Assembly (NCBI RefSeq): GCF_035285525.1 | Contig: NZ_JAYKGW010000241.1 | Span: 1-23,707 of the forward strand | DNA length: 23,707 nucleotides | DNA from: Okeania sp. | Lineage (GTDB): Bacteria; Cyanobacteriota; Cyanobacteriia; Cyanobacteriales; Microcoleaceae | Reading direction: 5' to 3' | The notes under the pieces: generated by a model | Told to the model about the DNA's origin: nothing | The model's database searches: none | Seen by the model: the letters and a program-made list of their open reading frames with translations, nothing else | Part shown: positions 1 to 23,707 of the stretch, one piece after another | Layout: every line of letters starts with the position of its first letter | How positions within the stretch are numbered: the stretch's first letter is position 1 | Position numbers and translations under genes: made by a program

Positions 1-236
1 ATTTACAGGTACAGGTGTCGGAACTACTGGTTGACTTACCCCTTGATTTACAGGTACAGGTGTCGGAACTACTGGTTGACTTACCCCTTGATTTACAGGT
101 ACAGGTGTCGGAGCTACTGGTTGACTTACCACTACTGGTGCTGTCGGAGCTACTGGTTGACTTACAGGTACAGGTGTCGGAGCTACTGGTTGACTTACCT
201 CTTGACTTACAGGTACAGGTGTTGGTGTATCAGTAA
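1..236 (-). repeat. 45-bp (15-codon) tandem repeat inside the sir 3' extension, encoding Pro/Val-rich repeats ([15 protein letters not shown] and variants)
   Basis: The unit atttacaggtacaggtgtcggaactactggttgacttaccccttg recurs at 1, 46 and 91, then as shortened or variant copies to about 236. The period is a multiple of 3 and in frame with sir. The array continues past the window edge. Confidence 0.85.
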
Positions 237-2307
237 AAGTAGAACTATTTACAGGCTGAGTTTCAGTAGTTACTCCTTCAGTGGTATTTGTCGTCGTTTG
301 ATTCACAACAGTATTTAATGGAGTTACCAATGTACCACCATCAATATTAGTAGGTGAATTGACTGGAGAATTAATAGAACTCTCTTGCTGATTATTTTCC
401 AGATTTGTTGTACTTATCTGTTGCTCTGGAAGTTTAGTCTCTGGAGTCGTCTGAGTAACATTTGTAATTACTGGAATATTCTTTTCAGAATTGACTGAAG
501 TAAAACTTGGATTGTTAATATCTGTATTCATCGAGAAACTAGATTGATTGTTGGTTACAAACTTACGGATGGCTTCAATACCGACACGATTACAGAAATC
601 ACCGAAACTCTCATCTGGTTGCCGTTGTTGCTTGAAATAAATAAAGATTCGCTCCAACTCAGCTTCCAAATTATTGATATGCAGTTTGTCAATATAAGGT
701 TTTGCTAGTCGTGTTTGATTAGGCGAACCCCCTAACCAAATCTGATAAGCATCAGGAGCACTACCAACAAATCCTAATTCCGCCATATAGGGTCTAGCAC
801 AGCCATTTGGACATCCTGTCATTCTAATTACAAAATGCTCCTGTCCTAGTCCCACCTTGTCCAACAATAACCTAATTTGTCCCAGTATGCCAGGTAAGGC
901 CCTCTCTGATTCTGTAATAGCAAGTCCACAAGTAGGTAAAGCAGGACAGGCCATACTATACCGGACTAAGGGATCAATCTCTTTTTCTATTCTGATACCA
1001 TGCTGAGAGAATATTTTTTCTATTGCTTGTTGCTGCTGTGGTTTAATTTCGTAGAGAATGATATTATGGTTAGCTGTTAAAAGCATAGGTAGCTTAAACA
1101 AACCAACTAATTTTCGTATAGCTGTCTTTAACTGAGATGTATCGTCATCTTTTACCCGACCATTTTCTACTGAAATTCCTAAAAATAGGTTTCCATCTCC
1201 CTGTTCATGCCATCCTAGAAAGTCAAAATATTTCCATTCTGGCAAAGGTCTGAAGGGAGCAATAGACTTGCCAAAATATTCTACTACCTTAGCCTTAAAT
1301 TTTTCTACTCCCCAGTCATGGATTAAATATTTCATTCTAGCATGACGACGTTGAGAGCGATCGCCATAATCTCTTTGAGTAGCTACTATAGCTTTAACGA
1401 AATTAAATATATCTTCTTTGGGGATATATCCAATTTCTTGAGCTAGACAAGGGAAAGTTTCTTCTTTTCTATGAGTACGACCTAAGCCACCACCTGCTAA
1501 AACATTAAATCCTTCTAATTCTCCGGCTTGATTAGTAATTACAACTAGACTAACATCCTGAGTATATAGGTCTATGGAATTATCCCCTGGAACTGTTACT
1601 GCACACTTAAATTTTCTGGGCATATAGTGAGTACCATAAATAGGCTCTTCACTATTGGGAAATATTGTACCATTAATATTAAGTTGTCTAGCCGCTTTTA
1701 CCTCTGGAGCTTCTTCTGCACTAATTACTTTTTCTCCATCCAGCCAAATTTCATAATATGCTCCTGTTTGAGGTGTTAATAAATCTGCTATTTTATTAGC
1801 ATAATCTCTAGCATATTCATATTCAGGACGATTTTTATAAGGAGCTGGGGGAGACATAACATTTCTGTTTAAATCTCCACAAGCACCTAATGTCGAACCC
1901 ATACTTTTAATAATGGATGATATGACATATTTCAGATTTTTCTTTAATACTCCATGCAACTGAAAACCTTGTCTAGTTGTTACCCGAAGCGTACCATTAC
2001 CATACTCATTAGATAATTGATTTAAGGTGAGAAAAAGTTGTGGCGGAATAAACCCACCTGGGTTCCGGGTGCGAAGCATCATTTGATAATCTTTCTCTTG
2101 CCCTTTAATTCTATTATCTCTATTATCTTGTTGATAAGAACCGTGAAATTTTAGTATTTGAATAGCTTCTTCCGTGAAGTGAGTTGTTTCTTCCAGCAGT
2201 TGGGTTGCCAGGGGTTCCCGTAAGAAATTACTATTTTCTTTTATTCCTTCTACTTTAGAAGTTTTCTGAGCTATATTTGTGGTTGAAATTTGAGATGGGA
2301 TTGTCAT
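1..2307 (-). CDS. sir: ferredoxin-sulfite reductase (siroheme/[4Fe-4S]); 3'-partial, because the reading frame is still open at the window edge
   Basis: Absent from the supplied ORF track because no stop codon lies inside the window. The minus-strand ATG is the complement of cat at 2305-2307. Plus-strand triplets in phase 1 contain no tta/cta/tca from 1 to 2307, giving 769 codons. The translation starts MTIPSQIST and contains [47 protein letters not shown] and [22 protein letters not shown]. The last two are the Cys clusters of plant/cyanobacterial ferredoxin-sulfite reductase. The conserved part ends near ...[14 protein letters not shown] (about nt 560). Confidence 0.9.
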
Positions 2308-2309
2308 TT

Positions 2310-2342
2310 CAGTTATCAGTTATCAGTTATCAGTCATCAGTT
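2310..2342. repeat. STRR-type heptamer repeat (CAGTTAT)n immediately upstream of the sir start codon
   Basis: The sequence cagttatcagttatcagttatcagtcatcag directly follows cat(2305-2307)ttt on the plus strand. Confidence 0.9.
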
Positions 2343-3125
2343 CCTCCTGGAATAAAGAGGCTTGAAATACTGAAGTTTGTTTCTTCTTGTTAGATTGGAT
2401 ATAGCGAGGTATCCTCGCCATCCCTCGACCGCTTTTCATCTTCATTTAAAAAAGAAGATTGAGACCTTATTTTTGGTCATTGGTGAAAGTAAGAATTGCT
2501 AATATTTTATTTCTATTTGTTAGTATAGTTACTGTCTGAATATTCCTTTTAAGTCACCAACAATTAGAAACTTAATTTTAGCTTTTTTTTATTTATAGAT
2601 AATTTGCTTTATTTTGATAATCTCTTGACTTTAGCATTTTTAATAATTTACCATTACTCTACCAATAATTCAACAGTTTTTTATTATACTCTCATATATA
2701 TGTACTTTGTCAACAACATCTACTGTAAGCTCTCAGCTCAAGCGCAATAAAAATGAATGAAGTCAGCTTTTTTTTACTTCTACCAAATTTTCAACCATCA
2801 ATCTGAGTTATTAAACCATATAATTAATCTATGGTAGAAAATTATAGATATATTTCAAAAGCTAAGAGAGCTTTTTCGCTGACTACTGAATACTTATAGT
2901 CATTTTAGTTTATACTGATGCAATAATTTCTTACTGTCAAAGGATTTTAACTAAAAAAATGTTTCATTCTTACTTAAAATGACTATACCATCTATTATTT
3001 TGTAGCTTTACTTGATTTTTCAATATAAAAATTAGATAAAACAATTAATTCTACTTAATTTTATAATGTCAATGATTAATCATAGTAGTTAAGCATTCAG
3101 CTATTAGCTGTCAACTCTTCCTACA

Positions 3126-10824: not shown

Positions 10825-11385
10825 TATGATATAAGAATCACTCTTACTCTCTTTCCAGCCAACTCTTCTGTAACTTTCCTAGCTCTTAACTATTCCCTAC
10901 CTCCACTTTTTTAGTTTTCATGTTTGAAAATTAAAAATTAGATAAAGTTATAGTTTTCTAATTTTGGTTTTAATATTTTAAATTTTACTATTTTTGTCTG
11001 GCTGTTAAATCGGAAAATTTTTTTGACTTGGTTAACGAAGTTTCAAGATTTTTAGCGCTTTTTTTCAGTTTTGTGATATCCTATACTTATGATATTGTTG
11101 GTATATTTTATGTCTTGACTGATTTTTATGGCTATTAATTCTTATTCTGCTGTTGTTTTGGTTGATTTTTGTCTGAATCTGCTTTGCTCAAAATGACTTT
11201 TTTTCTTTGCCCGTTTTTGGCTATTTTGACAAAATCAAAATTTTGTGATATGGAAGCAGAGTTTTTAGTCTTTTGACATTTTATTTTTGTTGAATAATTA
11301 GTCTAGTGTATGGGCGAAAGAAGTCCAACGATATAATGATACCACGGTTGGTTTGAGGATGCAACCCTAATTCTCAGATTTTTTT

Positions 11386-11990
11386 GGGTGCTTCACAGAA
11401 TGAAAAATTTGAGTAGTTAAGAAAGGTTTGACGAAAGAGGCGATCGCTACTTTACCTCCTGGGGTGCTTCACAGAATGAAAAATTTGAGTAGTTAAAAGA
11501 AGTTGGCTCCAAGAGAAAATTCCTGCCTCCTTTCTTAGGGTGCTTCACAGAATGAAAAATTTGAGTAGTTAAAAGAAGTTGGCTCCAAGAGAAAATTCCT
11601 GCCTCCTTTCTTAGGGTGCTTCACAGAATGAAAAATTTGAGTAGTTAAAAAAGGTTTGAGGAAAGAGGCGATCGCTACTTTCCTTCTGGGGTGCTTCACA
11701 GAATGAAAAATTTGAGTAGTTAAAAAAGGTTTTATGAAAGAGAAAATTCCTACCTCCTTTCTTAGGGTGCTTCAGAGAATGAAAAATTTGAGTAGTTAAA
11801 AGAAGTTGGCTCCAAGAGAAAATCCCTACTTTACCTTCTGGGGTGCTTCACAGAATGAAAAATTTGAGTAGTTAAAAGAAGTTGTCTCCAAGAGAAAATC
11901 CCTACTTTCCTTCTGGAGTGCTTCACAGAATGAAAAATTCTAAGTAGTTTAAGAAAGGTTTGATGAAAAAGCTGATAACTGTTCATTGAA
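11386..11990. repeat. array of 8 tandem 75-76 bp non-coding units (invariant 35-nt core plus a diverged 40-nt half)
   Basis: Unit starts are 11386, 11462, 11538, 11614, 11689, 11765, 11841 and 11916. The core GGGTGCTTCACAGAATGAAAAATTTGAGTAGTTAA is identical in units 1-5 and 7, has one substitution in unit 6, and is degenerate in unit 8. Units 2 and 3 are identical over all 76 nt. Confidence 0.95.
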
Positions 11991-13178: not shown

Positions 13179-14063
13179 TCAAAATTGCTTTTGACTGGTT
13201 GCCCAACGAGAAAGAATACTGGTAATTAAAACCAATAAAACTAACACCAAAGAACCTGCCCAAGCAAACTCTTGTAAAACCAAATCAAAACTACGGGCAA
13301 ACTCATATACTAGATATGCCAAAGATGGTACAGTCGGCGCCAAAGGTCCACGAGGCCAATTATTAGAATAAACCACAGTAAAAAGTAGTGGAGCTGTTTC
13401 TCCAGCAGCACGAGCGATCGCTAGAGTTATACCTGTAATAATACCTGGTAAAGCAGCAGGCAAAACTATTTGTAAAACAGTTTGATAATTAGAAGCACCA
13501 ACTCCTACAGATGCCCATCTAATATCTTTAGGAACTATTTGTAAAGCCTCATCAGTAGTTCTAATAATAGTAGGTAACATCAAAATTGATAAAGCAACTC
13601 CTCCAGCAAATGCAGAAAATTTCCCCATAGTTAAAACCAATAAACTATAGGCAAATACCCCAGCAATAATTGATGGTACACCACTCAAAACATTAGTCGC
13701 AAATCGAATTGGGCGGGAAGTTTTTTCGTCACTAAATTCTGACAAATAAACTGCTGCTAAGATACCAAAAGGTACTGCAATTAAACTAGCAATTACTACT
13801 ACCATAATTGTACCTAAAATAGCATTAGCAATACCCCCTGATGTTTGACCTGCTGCGGGAGGTAATTGAGTAAATAAATCTAAATTTAGACGACTTACTC
13901 CTTTAATAAAAACATAAATTAATACAGCAAAGAGAGGGATAAGAGTGATAACTATGCAACTAGCTGATAAAGCAGTCATCACTTTATTAAAAATTTCCCT
14001 GGAGCTAGTAGGGTTTCTTTTTAGATTAATAGAAGATTGTGGGTTATCGGTAGTATTTTTCAT
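13179..14063 (-). CDS. pstA: phosphate ABC transporter permease
   Basis: 294 aa polytopic membrane protein with a binding-protein-dependent permease loop (LAIARAAGETAPLLFT). Its position between pstC and pstB supports the call. Confidence 0.9.
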   Translation of the reverse strand: MKNTTDNPQSSINLKRNPTSSREIFNKVMTALSASCIVITLIPLFAVLIYVFIKGVSRLNLDLFTQLPPAAGQTSGGIANAILGTIMVVVIASLIAVPFGILAAVYLSEFSDEKTSRPIRFATNVLSGVPSIIAGVFAYSLLVLTMGKFSAFAGGVALSILMLPTIIRTTDEALQIVPKDIRWASVGVGASNYQTVLQIVLPAALPGIITGITLAIARAAGETAPLLFTVVYSNNWPRGPLAPTVPSLAYLVYEFARSFDLVLQEFAWAGSLVLVLLVLITSILSRWATSQKQF

Positions 14064-14113
14064 TTCAGTTATCAGTTACATTTCAGTTATCAATTATCAG
14101 TTATCAGTTATAA
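14064..14113. repeat. STRR heptamer repeat (CAGTTAT-type) abutting the pstA start codon
   Basis: ttcagttatcagttacatttcagttatcaattatcagttatcagttataat. Confidence 0.9.
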
Positions 14114-18310: not shown

Positions 18311-18507
18311 TTCTAGGAAAGAGCAAGTAAGGAGTTATTTCAGTTATCAGTAGCTGAAAACCCATAATAAAAATCTTGATTTTTCCTTCTGCTTTCTGCC
18401 CTCTGCCTTCTGCTATATTTTCCTTTAAAGTTAATTATTATGAATATGTGGTGGAAAGATGGTAAAATTCAATTTCATCAAACAATATAGTAATTACAAG
18501 GTTAGTC

Positions 18508-19673: not shown

Positions 19674-19753
19674 GGTAGGGACGTTGCATAACAAAAATGC
19701 GTTTTCCGTTCCGGAATCCTCCGCAAACATGTCGCGCAGCGATACGTCCCTAC
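19674..19753. repeat. GC-richer element bounded by a 10-bp inverted repeat, probably a dispersed intergenic repeat
   Basis: GTAGGGACGT at 19674-19683 pairs with ACGTCCCTAC at 19744-19753. The surrounding 19650-19835 is much more GC-rich than the local background. Confidence 0.4.
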
Positions 19754-19838
19754 AGGAGAAAGATTTTTGTTGGGTTACTTCTGCGGAGAACCAAGCTACC
19801 ATGCTGCGCAACCCTAACGGGAACAACCGAACCTACAT

Positions 19839-19976
19839 CTATAAAATTATTATTTCTTCCCTGTTCCCTGTTCCCTGTTCCCTGTTCCCTGTTCCCTGTT
19901 CCCTGTTCCCTGTTCCCTGTTCCCTCTATAAAATTATTATTTCTTCCCTGTTCCCTGTTCCCTGTTCCGTGTTCCC
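19839..19976. repeat. nested repeat: the block [ctataaaattattatttctt + (CCCTGTT)n] occurs twice
   Basis: The 20-mer is at 19839-19858 and again at 19926-19945. (CCCTGTT) occurs as 9 perfect copies at 19859-19921, and about 4 copies at 19946-19976. Confidence 0.95.
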
Positions 19977-19994
19977 TCTCTCAACTTAACTGAA

Positions 19995-20579
19995 ATGGCA
20001 ATTACAGTAGAATTACTTTGGGCAGTTGTAGGTTTACTATTAACAATTGCTGCAACATTTTTACCAGCCTCTTTTGCTAGTCCTACTTGGATATGGGAAC
20101 AACAAGAAATTAAGATTTTTTCTTTAGGAGTAACTTACCAAGTTGGTGCAGTTTTATTAGTAGGTTGTTTAGGTGGAAAAAATGCTGCTGTTATTTCTCA
20201 AATAGCCTACATATTGTTAGGTCTAACATTATTACCTGTGTTTACTAACGGTGGTGGTATTGGTTATTTGAGAGAACCTAGTTTTGGTTATTTATTAGGT
20301 TTTATTCCTGGAGCTTGGGTGTGTGGAAATCTAGCTTTTACAGCATATCCTAAATTAGAATCATTAGCTTTTAGCTGTTTATGTGGTTTGTTAAGTATTC
20401 ATGTAACTGGGTTAGTTTATTTAATTATTAGTAATATTTTAGGGTGGAAAAATACAGATTCATTACCTTTATTTGAAGCTATTTTTAGATATTCTATTTT
20501 TCCTTTTCCAGGACAACTAGGAATTATATGTGCTATTGCAGTTATGGCTTATTTTTTACGACGTTTATTGTTTTATTAA
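19995..20579 (+). CDS. bioY: BioY-family biotin transporter (S component)
   Basis: 194 aa polytopic membrane protein directly after bioB, with BioY-like motifs QVGAVLLVGCLGG, LPVFTNGGGIGYL and PSFGYLLGFIPGAW. Confidence 0.75.
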   Translation: MAITVELLWAVVGLLLTIAATFLPASFASPTWIWEQQEIKIFSLGVTYQVGAVLLVGCLGGKNAAVISQIAYILLGLTLLPVFTNGGGIGYLREPSFGYLLGFIPGAWVCGNLAFTAYPKLESLAFSCLCGLLSIHVTGLVYLIISNILGWKNTDSLPLFEAIFRYSIFPFPGQLGIICAIAVMAYFLRRLLFY

Positions 20580-21314: not shown

Positions 21315-22781
21315 CTACTCCCTACTCCCTCTTTTATTACAATTATCACAATGACCGCAACCCATATTTTGAGCTTCTTGAGAAAAACCAAATGCTTCTA
21401 ATAAAAATTGCCATCGACATTTTTTCGTAGAACAATATTTATTCATTTCCTCAACTCCTGAACTGTAATTTAAAGATGCTTTTTTACCACTACTAGACTT
21501 ATTAATAATATAATTAAACGGGTCGCGCCATCTCAATTTTCCAGAAGAATGGAGAATAGATAAAGCGATCGCTGCATTAGGAAATTCATCTATTAAACTA
21601 TTAATATTTCCCGTAGTTGGCAGTTGCTTAATTAATTTTTCTGCTGTCTGATACTGCGACCTTAATTTATCTGCTAAAAACTTTTGTCTTTGTTTATCCT
21701 CCGAATCTAACCAACCAGTTGGTTCACTAATTAAAGTTAAAGCTTCTGCCATTTTTCCATCTCTACCTCCCCTACCAACTTCTTGAATATATTCTGATAA
21801 AAGACATGGTGCTTGAAAATGTATTACCCAGCGCACATCTGGTTTATTTATTCCCATTCCAAAAGCAGAAGTACAGACTACAAAATTTATTTCTCCACCT
21901 ATCCAAACTTTCTCAATATGTCGTCTTTCTTCCCCACTTAAACCAGCATGATAAGCTGTAGTTTGATAATTTTTGACTCGTAATATTTCCGCTAAATTTT
22001 CACTATCTTTTCTAGTTCTCACATAAACTAAACCAGCTTGTTTTTCTCTAGCTTTGATAAACTTAAATAATTGTTGACGGCGAATTCTAGGAGTACAAAT
22101 ATATTGAATTTTTAGATGTAAATTATTTCGGTAAGGACTAAGTAAAAATTGTGTTGGGTTTTGTAATTTTAGGGTATTTTTGATAATTTTTTGAGCTTCA
22201 GGATCCGCAGTAGCGGTGAATGCTGCAATCGCAATATTTGTACCTGGTGGTTTAGATTTTATTAATGCCGATCTAACTGCTCCTAAACGTCTATAAGCAG
22301 GGCGAAATGTTTCTCCCCATTGTACTAAACAGTGAGCTTCATCTAATATGAAACCATTGATTTTTGTCTGGGGTTGAGATAATAAATTCCAGATTTTTTC
22401 GTTGAATAATGTTTCTGGAGAAAGGTAGAGTAATCTGAGTTTATTTTGTTCTAATTTTTGGAATGTTTCTCGTTTTTTTTGGGAAGTAAGTTGACTGTGG
22501 AGTAAAGCAGCAGGTAGAGAGCGATCGCTTAATTCTTGTACTTGATTTTCCATTAAAGCAACTAGGGGAGAAATAACTAATGTTAAACCTGTTTGTAGAA
22601 GGGCGGGAAGTTGAAAACATATTGATTTTCCCCCTCCAGTTGGCATTATAATTAAAGCATCTTTTCCCGTTAATAAACAGTTAATTATTTCTCCTTGTGG
22701 AGGTCGAAAATCATCATATCCCCAGATTTTTTTGAATGTTTCTTTGACTATATTCCAAGATATTTGTTGTGAGTTATTCAT
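21315..22781 (-). CDS. recQ: RecQ-family ATP-dependent DNA helicase (short form, no HRDC region visible)
   Basis: 488 aa with MPTGGGKS (Walker A), LDEAHC (DEAH), FTATA, AFGMGINKPDVRWVIH and QEVGRGGRDG, plus a C-terminal Cys cluster (CRW…CGHCDNC). Confidence 0.9.
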   Translation of the reverse strand: MNNSQQISWNIVKETFKKIWGYDDFRPPQGEIINCLLTGKDALIIMPTGGGKSICFQLPALLQTGLTLVISPLVALMENQVQELSDRSLPAALLHSQLTSQKKRETFQKLEQNKLRLLYLSPETLFNEKIWNLLSQPQTKINGFILDEAHCLVQWGETFRPAYRRLGAVRSALIKSKPPGTNIAIAAFTATADPEAQKIIKNTLKLQNPTQFLLSPYRNNLHLKIQYICTPRIRRQQLFKFIKAREKQAGLVYVRTRKDSENLAEILRVKNYQTTAYHAGLSGEERRHIEKVWIGGEINFVVCTSAFGMGINKPDVRWVIHFQAPCLLSEYIQEVGRGGRDGKMAEALTLISEPTGWLDSEDKQRQKFLADKLRSQYQTAEKLIKQLPTTGNINSLIDEFPNAAIALSILHSSGKLRWRDPFNYIINKSSSGKKASLNYSSGVEEMNKYCSTKKCRWQFLLEAFGFSQEAQNMGCGHCDNCNKRGSRE

Positions 22782-22864
22782 TTCAGTTATGAAGTAAGCA
22801 TTTAGCCATCAGCTAACAGCTTATCAGCTATTACTTTTTGTTTTATATATTTGTCAGAAAAAAC

Positions 22865-22920
22865 TGTAGGGGTTTGGTCTCCAAATCCCTTTGCACTTGG
22901 GTTTGGAAACCAAACCCCTA
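22865..22920. repeat. 56-nt imperfect long hairpin (REP/MITE-like)
   Basis: GTAGGGGTTTGGT-c-TCCAAATCCC-tttgcact-TGGGTTTGGA-a-ACCAAACCCCTAC. Confidence 0.5.
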
Positions 22921-22950
22921 CCATAAAATCTTACAATCTATTTAACTAAC

Positions 22951-22983
22951 AGAAACCCGGTTTCTTCAAGAAACCGGGTTTCT
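22951..22983 (-). terminator. perfect 15-bp stem hairpin at the 3' end of the TIGR00725-like gene
   Basis: AGAAACCCGGTTTCT-tca-AGAAACCGGGTTTCT. The loop tca (22966-22968) is the complement of the TGA that closes the reconstructed reading frame. Confidence 0.55.
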
Positions 22984-23501
22984 AAGTCCTCTATTCCCTA
23001 CTCCCTGCTCCCTACTCCCTAAAATCAAATTTTTAATCACCTCAATAGCACTTTCTGGGATATTCACCACAAAAACAGTTTCCGGAGACAAACTAACAAA
23101 AAAAGCCTGACTTTCCAAATTACTATTCAACAAAATAATCCTTTTATTATTCCTGCCAAAGCAACCTCTGAAGCAGTACCCGCTTCCATCCCACAGGCGA
23201 TCGCAACATCACTAGAAAGCACATTAACATCCCATCCGACTATTACCCATATCAGTAACAATAGGAATATCCACCGCCTCAGAAATACCATCCACATTAT
23301 TGCCAGGCAAAATACCAATAGTTAAACCATTAACAGACTTTGCACCCCGACTCGCAGCATCCATCACACCCATATTCCGCCCACCTGTCAATAAAACCCA
23401 AGATTCTTGAGCTATTAGTTGACCTAATTTATAGGCATTTTTCAAGTCTACGGAAGTAGCGCCACTTCCCGGACCCATGACACCGATGATAATTTTTTCA
23501 T
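22966..23501 (-). pseudogene. TIGR00725 / LOG-like (Rossmann, lysine-decarboxylase-like) family gene disrupted by three frameshifts
   Basis: Track ORFs 23224..23478 and 23127..23318, plus an unlisted open frame at 22969..23208, are consecutive pieces of one protein: (MKK)IIIGVMGPGSGAT…LLTGGRNMGVMDAASRGAKSVNGLTIGILPG…IVTDMGNSR / DVNVLSSDVAIACGMEAGTASEVALAG / NNKRIILLNSNLESQAFFVSLSPETVFVVNIPESAIEVIKNL. The frame order is A, A+1, A. The SD-preceded ATG at 23499-23501 is also 1 nt out of frame across an A6 run. Confidence 0.7.
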
Positions 23502-23546
23502 TAGATATCTCCAGAAAAGAGAGAACACTTAACTGGGAACAGAGAA

Positions 23547-23707
23547 CAGTTGTAGGTTGGGTTGAGGGACGAAACCCAACAAAACTTTGAACAGTTGTAG
23601 GTTGGGTTGAGGGACGAAACCCAACAAAACTTTGAACAGTTGTAGGTTGGGTTGAGGGACGAAACCCAACAAAACTTTGAACAGTTGTAGGTTGGGTTGA
23701 GGGACGA
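23547..23707. repeat. 45-bp tandem repeat (at least 3.5 copies, running off the window), each unit holding an 8-bp-stem hairpin
   Basis: The unit cagttgtaggttgggttgagggacgaaacccaacaaaactttgaa starts at 23547, 23592, 23637 and 23682. The hairpin is GTTGGGTT-gagggacga-AACCCAAC. Confidence 0.95.

Follow-up and report, generated by a model that had tools for sequence, protein, structure and literature searches.

The window analyzed here, the whole of a 23,707-nucleotide stretch of Okeania sp. DNA (contig NZ_JAYKGW010000241.1), carries the gene order recQ-lspA-bioY-bioB-pstS-pstS-pstC-pstA-pstB ... DUF2854-CRR7-sir, the same as in Trichodesmium erythraeum IMS101. Its Sir, PstA and RecQ proteins have their best homologues in Dapis, Okeania and Trichodesmium, at 84-93% identity, and on sequence grounds the clade concerned is Okeania/Dapis/Trichodesmium, of the non-heterocystous Microcoleaceae type and not Nostocales. 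More than 15 heptamer arrays, built from different units, occupy the intergenic DNA. One of these units, TAACTGA, abuts the start codons of four unrelated genes, sir, pstA, recQ and bioY, and at sir it appears, by alignment with relatives, as the tail of an inserted modular element.

An identical string at the starts of three minus-strand genes had been reported in the initial annotation, and it corresponds to an exact minus-strand 12-mer, ATAACTGAAATG, found at 2305-2316, 14061-14072 and 22779-22790. These are the start codons of sir (ATG at 2307-2305), pstA (ATG at 14063-14061) and a recQ-family gene with a single TAACTGA copy, and in each case the ATG of the 12-mer opens a long open reading frame (ORF) on the minus strand: sir at 1-2307, pstA at 13179-14063 and the RecQ-family helicase at 21315-22781. 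The common leader before these genes, ATAACTGAA-ATG, is TAACTGA + A + ATG, with the repeat unit rotated by one base. The three genes stand, but further copies had been overlooked. An extra exact ATAACTGAAATG (14079-14090) precedes the pstA ATG by 18 nt, and an 11/12 copy, TTAACTGAAATG, lies on the plus strand at 19986-19997, exactly on the start of bioY (ATG at 19995), a 194-aa ORF (19995-20579, plus strand) identified by synteny and by Pfam matches of its orthologues. A decayed junction copy, ATAACTGAAATA (ACTGATAACTGAAATAAC; minus strand, 18336-18347, extending to 18350), has ATA in place of ATG and marks no gene start, since it falls within the divergent spacer separating bioB from the second pstS copy; such decay is as expected for a copy unused as a start. 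At no more than one mismatch, the window holds six matches to ATAACTGAAATG, against 0.44 ± 0.64 in dinucleotide shuffles, and none of 100 shuffles reached six. Chance co-occurrence in an AT-rich, repeat-rich genome, already dismissed in the initial annotation, draws only on the high background of heptamer repeats; as the junction also recurs hundreds of times in other genomes, its probability is negligible.

The start codons themselves are genuine and do not lie elsewhere. The alignment of Sir with the NCBIfam profile TIGR02042 begins at residue 11, corresponding to profile position 5, and its N-terminus (MTIPSQIST) matches that of close homologues (MITPSQIST or MMTPSQIST). The RecQ N-terminus reads MNNSQQISWN in the window and MKNSEQTSWN in a homologue, and the pstA start is in the same codon register as in its orthologues. 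Because the N-termini agree in this way, the start codons are right, and comparison with relatives shows all four, bioY included, to be orthologous to the relatives' starts. In coding-strand orientation, each of the four copies next to a gene has the form TAACTGA-A-ATG, and no canonical ribosome-binding site lies between repeat and start because the two adjoin. The leader is repeat-derived and takes the place of a Shine-Dalgarno region, as originally proposed.

At sir, the origin of this leader can be read by comparison with empty sites. Five relatives, namely Dapis (L118), Okeania KiyG1 (L119), Okeania SIO2F4 (L248), a Microcoleaceae metagenome-assembled genome (L120) and T. erythraeum (L123), have sir leaders without an array, and their starts read ...GCAATTTGCACTTT..CC-ATGAT(A/G)A... 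(leader string also AATAGTAGCAATTTGCACTTT). The window leader reads ...GCAATTCTTACTTTCACCA-ATGAC-(~170 nt)-ATGAC-AATCCCATCT; in the alignment, which comprises the window and four of the empty sites (L118, L119, L120 and L123, the fifth, L248, having been read directly), similarity picks up again at ATGAC-AATCCCATCTCAA. The ~170-nt block is absent from all five relatives. Since the ancestral leader and its ATGAC are kept and the block is absent in the relatives, the sir leader is an insertion exactly at the start codon, with the present ATG on its right edge. Leader comparison thus indicates that a ~170-nt element landed on the sir start codon and supplied a replacement ATG.

The inserted modular repeat element (2303-2475, minus strand, ~169-173 nt) is delimited by the empty-site alignment, by copies elsewhere and by its fold. 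From its left end, CAAAAATAAGGTCTCAA, it proceeds through three hairpins and TATTTCAAGCCTC-hairpin-GGAGG to AACTGA-TGACTGA-(TAACTGA)3 and finally A-ATGAC. The displaced ancestral start, an ATGAC following the ancestral leader AAATATTAGCAATTCTTACTTTCACCA, remains at 2476-2480 on the minus strand, and its ATG now opens a 12-codon upstream ORF (uORF; 2480-2442, reading MTKNKVSIFFFK and then a stop). Just upstream of the array lies the hairpin CCTCTTTATTCCAGGAGG (2343-2360, minus strand), in which CCUC is predicted to pair with GAGG and which shows compensatory changes. The array itself (2309-2342, TCAGTTA on the plus strand and TAACTGA on the coding strand) is listed at 4.9 copies, three of them perfect TAACTGA and two variants. 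The sole GGAGG of the leader is held within a hairpin 33 nt upstream of the ATG, every reading frame meets a stop in the three heptamers before the ATG, and the AU-rich leader is predicted to be unpaired. A promoter and terminator scan of the sir spacer found promoter-like sites no more common than in shuffles and none within the element, so no claim of an element-borne promoter is made. No copy-number variants were found among strains, the only exact relative being a 3.9-kb Logan contig identical over its whole length, and none of 120 metagenome stretches held loci orthologous to the window genes.

The sir locus has other features of its own. At 2332-2346 (minus strand), the variant TGACTGA creates ATGACTGATAACTGA, a 4-codon uORF (MTDN-stop) 5 nt after the hairpin GGAGG, which is probably incidental because other element copies have TACTGA at this position and no ATG. 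The sir ORF has no stop within the window (769+ aa): the reductase domain ends at about residue 590 and is followed by a Pro/Val/Thr/Gln-rich tail (tail region 1-700, minus strand), the end of which is encoded by 45-nt and 33-nt tandem repeats (window 1-198). Sir measures 736-921 aa in relatives of the clade, versus ~635-690 aa in other cyanobacteria.

Modules of the sir type recur in Okeania, in Trichodesmium, on other cyanobacterial contigs and in metagenomes, and define a family. Its left end is C(A/G)AAAAAT..GGTCTCAAGCCTCCCC-loop-GGGGAT(A)n; an optional second module is GCGGTCGAGGGATGG-hairpin-ATATCCAATCGACCAAGAG; and the third, TATTTCAAGCCTCC-hairpin-GAGGTACTGA, is followed by the array and then by A-ATGAC. 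The 25 complete elements range from 110 to 245 nt, and heptamer copy number between element copies varies by multiples of 7 nt. In 21 of the 25, TGAC forms the right 4-mer, whatever the left 4-mer, and the left-flank 4-mer is TGAC in 12 and TTAC in eight (20/25 together); left and right 4-mers are identical in only nine. A displaced ATGAC stands on the left flank in four of the eight copies that abut long ORFs and in one of the 17 others, a small sample (Fisher p = 0.023). The pre-array hairpin covaries: across 28 copies, five of eight pairs change on both sides, and double-change cells number 21 against 10.8 ± 2.8 in shuffles (0/500 reaching this value), with slid controls far lower. This explicit pair count was used because RNAalifold, run on the gapped alignment of the right-hand module, predicted nothing. 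No Rfam family matched anywhere in the window at gathering thresholds, and the element is therefore not a described RNA family. No inverted repeat connects the two termini of the 2303-2475 element, in which internal hairpins alone were found. A target-site duplication, in which TGAC would be doubled and the element's terminal A would make the ATG, was considered and rejected, since left and right tetramers differ in 16 of the 25 copies. A limited literature search, by sequence strings and for MITEs (miniature transposable elements with inverted repeats) of Trichodesmium and other cyanobacteria, found no description of the element, a weak sign of novelty.

The tail of the family need not always be TAACTGA. 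In Okeania KiyG1 (L119, 16300-19000), two element-family copies in inverted arrangement, with (TCAATTA)n tails, lie on either side of a TnpB (OrfB_IS605) gene, so heptamer arrays in the clade can be element tails more generally. Different heptamer arrays may be interchangeable tails of one element family, judging from these copies, and the AATTATC-type array before the cyclase gene of the window may be such a tail too, although no element modules are recognizable at it.

The end of the element was followed into other genomes and metagenomes. With each species represented by one genome, a scan for TAACTGATAACTGA gave at least 116 stretches. Among the matches listed, 24 arrays in forward orientation and four in reverse face an ORF of at least 100 codons no more than 10 nt away. 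The commonest non-repeat continuation in the same set is AATG, found after 19 of 142 perfect arrays; 16 of these 19 read ATGAC, and only about eight open an ORF of ~90 codons or more. By lineage, again among the matches listed, the AATG junction occurs in 14 of 27 arrays of the Okeania/Trichodesmium clade, in five of 50 from other cyanobacteria and in none of 60 from other phyla and Beggiatoaceae. In metagenomes, scanning for TAACTGATAACTGAAATG yielded 126 unique junctions, 101 of which (80%) read ATGAC; an ORF of at least 80 codons follows 41 of the 118 that could be evaluated (35%), and ORFs at these junctions begin at the canonical N-termini of AccC, GlgA, SufS, MnmG and KdsA. The AC after the junction ATG is conserved with or without a gene downstream, which points to element-borne sequence and not to gene-by-gene selection.

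The shared leader is thus probably, if not securely, the 3′ edge of a TAACTGA repeat family carried as the tail of a hairpin-rich dispersed element, and it would be mainly element-borne. An element-borne terminus accounts for the fixed 1-nt spacing, the conserved AC, the two-thirds of copies without a gene, the absence of the motif in orthologues and the displaced ancestral starts. The agent would be a non-coding modular element of ~110-245 nt, with a right end (TAACTGA)n-A-ATGAC and a left end that abuts T(G/T)AC. A copy landing on the TGAC of a start codon (ATGAC...) would move the old ATG ~170 nt upstream, where it would become a short uORF, and the element's own ATGAC would substitute in frame, allowing the gene to survive. 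The new leader would be AU-rich, devoid of a Shine-Dalgarno sequence and predicted to be unpaired, with all-frame stops just before the ATG, and may drive S1-type, Shine-Dalgarno-independent initiation. Because the array stops every frame, insertion elsewhere within genes would be lethal, and copies would for that reason persist only in spacers or exactly at starts.

The same junctions can be read as a selected translational or regulatory leader, TAACTGA-A-AUG being an RNA signal recruited independently at many genes that would form a post-transcriptional regulon. The signal could be an S1, Csp-like or CsrA-like binding site, or an unstructured standby site whose all-frame stops favor termination-reinitiation. 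A leader role is MacGregor's own proposal for Beggiatoaceae (MacGregor 2015, Front Microbiol 6:1397; PMC4679880), and heptamer arrays by the recF and recO starts seem to affect expression in Nostoc PCC 7120 (Pradhan et al. 2022, bioRxiv 10.1101/2022.06.06.494920). The orientation bias noted above, 24 versus four within 10 nt among the matches listed, extends over several phyla, and essential genes (sir, accC, glgA, sufS, kdsA) use the junction ATG. Within the window, the bioY 11-mer seems to derive from TTAATTGYCGTG through point substitutions, GTG to ATG among them; TAA(C/T)TGAAATG is kept at recQ in two lineages; and predicted accessibility is slightly above that of the orthologous leaders at three of the four genes. 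That gain is small, however, and absent at recQ, and sister-genus orthologues of the same genes do without the motif. Moreover, 65% of identical junctions precede ORFs of less than 80 codons, and conservation of the post-ATG AC in 80% of junctions regardless of gene is unexpected under gene-by-gene selection. Independent recruitment is therefore an unlikely, though serious, account of the shared leader; a selected translational function is also compatible with an element-borne origin.

Replication slippage in situ offers a different explanation, in which arrays grow from chance heptamer-like seeds at AT-rich initiation regions and the junction is the seed, with no mobile element involved. Candidate seeds exist: within the ancestral sir start, ATGATAAC, lies TGATAAC, which is the heptamer in rotated form, and relatives carry TAACTAACTGATAA ~30 nt upstream of sir. 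The differences of multiples of 7 nt between element copies and an 18-nt tandem duplication in the pstA leader that takes in the ATG are also what slippage would leave. The sir array, however, came with ~130 nt of non-repeat modules common to distant loci and differs in register from the ancestral seed, and slippage cannot account for the conserved AATGAC by which the last unit is followed at 101 of 126 junctions. As a general explanation it is improbable.

The element-borne reading is shown directly for sir only, and the other three genes have to be weighed one by one. The pstA leader (14064-14111, minus strand) reads TAACTGA, TAACTGA, TAATTGA, TAACTGA-A-ATG and then TAACTGA, TAACTGA-A, with 2+1+2 copies and one TAATTGA variant. 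Its second 12-mer, at 14079-14090, is an AUG-UAA start-stop that arose by tandem duplication of the 18-mer TAACTGATAACTGAAATG, so that in these leaders even the start codon can be duplicated by slippage. Relatives (L122, L123 and L124) have ...CTTAATT(A/C)ATT-ATGGCAGAT and no array, and the first codons of pstA, though diverged (MADITY to MKNTTD), keep the same register.

At recQ, the initial annotation had seen the motif without an array. This does not hold: the one perfect TAACTGA is preceded by degenerate heptamers of the TAGCTGA type (TAGCTGA, TTAGCTGA) up to ~22835. In the closest relative (L125, 93% identical), another heptamer array precedes TAATTGAA-ATGACA, a near-variant of the motif (TAATTGAAATG / TAATTGAAATGACA), and two further relatives (L126 and L127) have unrelated leaders without it. 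Farther upstream of recQ, at 22860-22985, lie two GC-rich palindromic repeats, GGGGTTTGG...CCAAACCCC and AAACCCGGTTTCTTCAAGAAACCGGGTTTCT, types that also adjoin a TAACTGA array in another Okeania (L045).

The bioY leader of three relatives reads TTAATTG(C/T)C-GTG-ACAATT (TTAATTG(C/T)CGTGACAATT), and that of the window TTAACTGAA-ATG-GCAATT, a change that would amount either to four or five substitutions in place or to a replacement at GTGAC. Upstream of the bioY motif, between bioB and bioY, the window also carries a (TTCCCTG)n array of ~17 copies (19857-19977). This array creates the spurious ORFs 19684-19989 and 19697-19993, with a risk of false gene calls.

By comparison with relatives, the motif is a recent lineage-specific gain at sir, pstA and bioY, and at recQ it is common to only two close lineages. 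We infer that pstA, recQ and bioY took the same tail by the same route as sir; slippage (at pstA) and conversion or substitution (at bioY and recQ) may contribute. Several observations weigh against extending the element-borne reading in this way. A scan for the other modules of the element at pstA, recQ and bioY found none, leaving the complete element at one gene of four, sir; these three genes continue ATGAA or ATGGC, not ATGAC; the pstA spacer is too diverged for insertion boundaries; and the bioY leader lines up position by position with the ancestral TTAATTGYCGTG, a pattern closer to convergence or conversion than to insertion. For the family as a whole, the association between left-flank ATGAC and long ORFs rests on small numbers (p = 0.023), mobility is inferred, no cognate transposase having been identified at the one TnpB locus inspected (L119), and the distance from right hairpin to terminus is variable, which is atypical of IS200/IS605-type ends. 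The suggestion in the initial annotation that arrays insert at initiation regions accordingly stands directly for sir, with its five empty sites and ~170-nt block, and statistically for the element family; at pstA, recQ and bioY only the tail is seen.

The core finding, TAACTGA repeats abutting start codons, is already published. Direct repeats of TAACTGA were described in Beggiatoaceae, Cyanobacteria and Bacteroidetes, being known from about 15 cyanobacteria and five Bacteroidetes (MacGregor 2015; PMC4679880). The BOGUAY genome (Candidatus 'Maribeggiatoa', Orange Guaymas) has 170 TAACTGA sets, of which 147 are directed at a start codon, and sets ending 1 nt upstream of the start form the largest single category; the genes so led usually have no ribosome-binding site, are functionally unrelated and include essential ones (PMC4679880). 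Forward repeats read LITDN-stop and hence block all frames, and a translational role was proposed (S1, Csp, CsrA), with 'no mechanism evident' for their spread (PMC4679880). The window leaders share with these repeats the heptamer, the forward orientation, the modal 1-nt spacing, the lack of a Shine-Dalgarno sequence and the all-frame stops. At sir and pstA there are two or more tandem copies; recQ and bioY, each with a single perfect copy beside other heptamers, correspond to the 'singletons' of that paper. A carrier element was not described there, whereas here the arrays at sir and in complete related copies are the tails of a modular element with an AATGAC terminus, and one insertion can be set against empty sites. 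Only cyanobacteria have the exact AATG(AC) junction, chiefly those of the Okeania/Trichodesmium clade, with 0/60 arrays from other phyla and Beggiatoaceae among the matches listed.

In Nostoc PCC 7120, several genes, recF and recO among them, have contiguous heptamers that overlap the start codon or lie within 30 nt of it, and reporter data suggest an effect on expression (Pradhan et al. 2022, bioRxiv 10.1101/2022.06.06.494920). Those repeats are different heptamers (TTTTGAA, GAC(C/T)AAT) in a different organism, and that work contains no element or insertion analysis.

The arrays of the window had initially been labeled short tandemly repeated repetitive (STRR) sequences, the heptamers of heterocystous cyanobacteria that Mazel and colleagues reportedly described in 1990. 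STRR sequences are defined as hybridization and fingerprinting repeats, with no known link to start codons. The likeness lies in tandem heptanucleotide arrays in the intergenic DNA of filamentous cyanobacteria, with many heptamers per genome. The label does not fit in its classic sense, because the host here is not one of the Nostocales but non-heterocystous and of the Microcoleaceae type; to our knowledge, TAACTGA is also not one of the classic STRR1-3 units.

Among mobile repeats, the element resembles the non-autonomous derivatives of IS200/IS605, the palindrome-associated transposable elements (PATEs), and hairpin repeats of the REP/REPIN type in having neither terminal inverted repeats nor a target-site duplication. 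As in PATEs, its left end abuts a preferred tetranucleotide, TTAC or TGAC in 20 of 25 copies, TTAC being the target of IS608, and hairpins lie near both ends, the right one with covariation and 18 to >55 nt from the terminus according to heptamer copy number. Host genomes carry TnpB/OrfB_IS605 genes; the one inspected (L119) is flanked by element copies, its own proximal ends look different, and no TnpA or TnpB element ends matching the element were found at this locus. Two points weaken the case, namely that the hairpin lies at no constant distance from the terminus and that no transposase was identified, and the shared features amount to a resemblance, with membership unproven. MITEs that remodel 5′ regions, such as the Correia elements of Neisseria and the enterobacterial ERIC/RUP elements, are likewise small non-coding repeats that insert beside genes. 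They supply promoters, processing sites or coding ends and have terminal inverted repeats and target duplications; the element described here differs from a classical MITE, derived from a DDE transposase, in lacking both. We know of no MITE with a heptamer array and a ready-made ATG that replaces the host start codon.

Two tandem arrays of other kinds complete the repeat inventory. Between the response-regulator/cyclase gene and pstB, a 76-nt unit is repeated 7.7 times (11379-11968, 82% match) with higher-order periods of 227 and 303 and no Rfam match, and a perfect 45-nt tandem repeat of 3.6 copies (23544-23707, 100% identical) continues past the window's right end.

The start-proximal TAACTGA repeat has remained unexplained since 2015, both in function and in the mechanism of its spread. 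To this problem the window adds a start-codon insertion and a carrier element in the Okeania/Trichodesmium clade, of which a limited literature search found no prior description. The sir locus is a natural experiment, in which an essential ferredoxin-sulfite reductase gene has had its start and leader displaced by a ~170-nt element and now relies on the element's ATG. A point for annotation is that only about one in three junction ATGs is a true start. Were the element-borne reading to hold generally, it would explain the fixed distance between repeat and start, the sharing of the repeat by unrelated genes and the tolerance of such repeats, and it would provide a naturally validated leader without a Shine-Dalgarno sequence for cyanobacterial expression work. 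A bolder extension, which we regard as tentative and on balance doubtful, is that marine filamentous cyanobacteria harbor a family of portable 'leader plus start codon' cassettes. These would home to T(G/T)AC, including ATGAC starts, replace the 5′ untranslated region and ATG of essential genes, and place dozens of unrelated genes (sir, accC, glgA, sufS, mnmG, kdsA and others) under one Shine-Dalgarno-independent mode of initiation and possibly one regulator. If true, this cassette reading would explain how the TAACTGA repeats reported in 2015 have spread, for which a mechanism has been missing.

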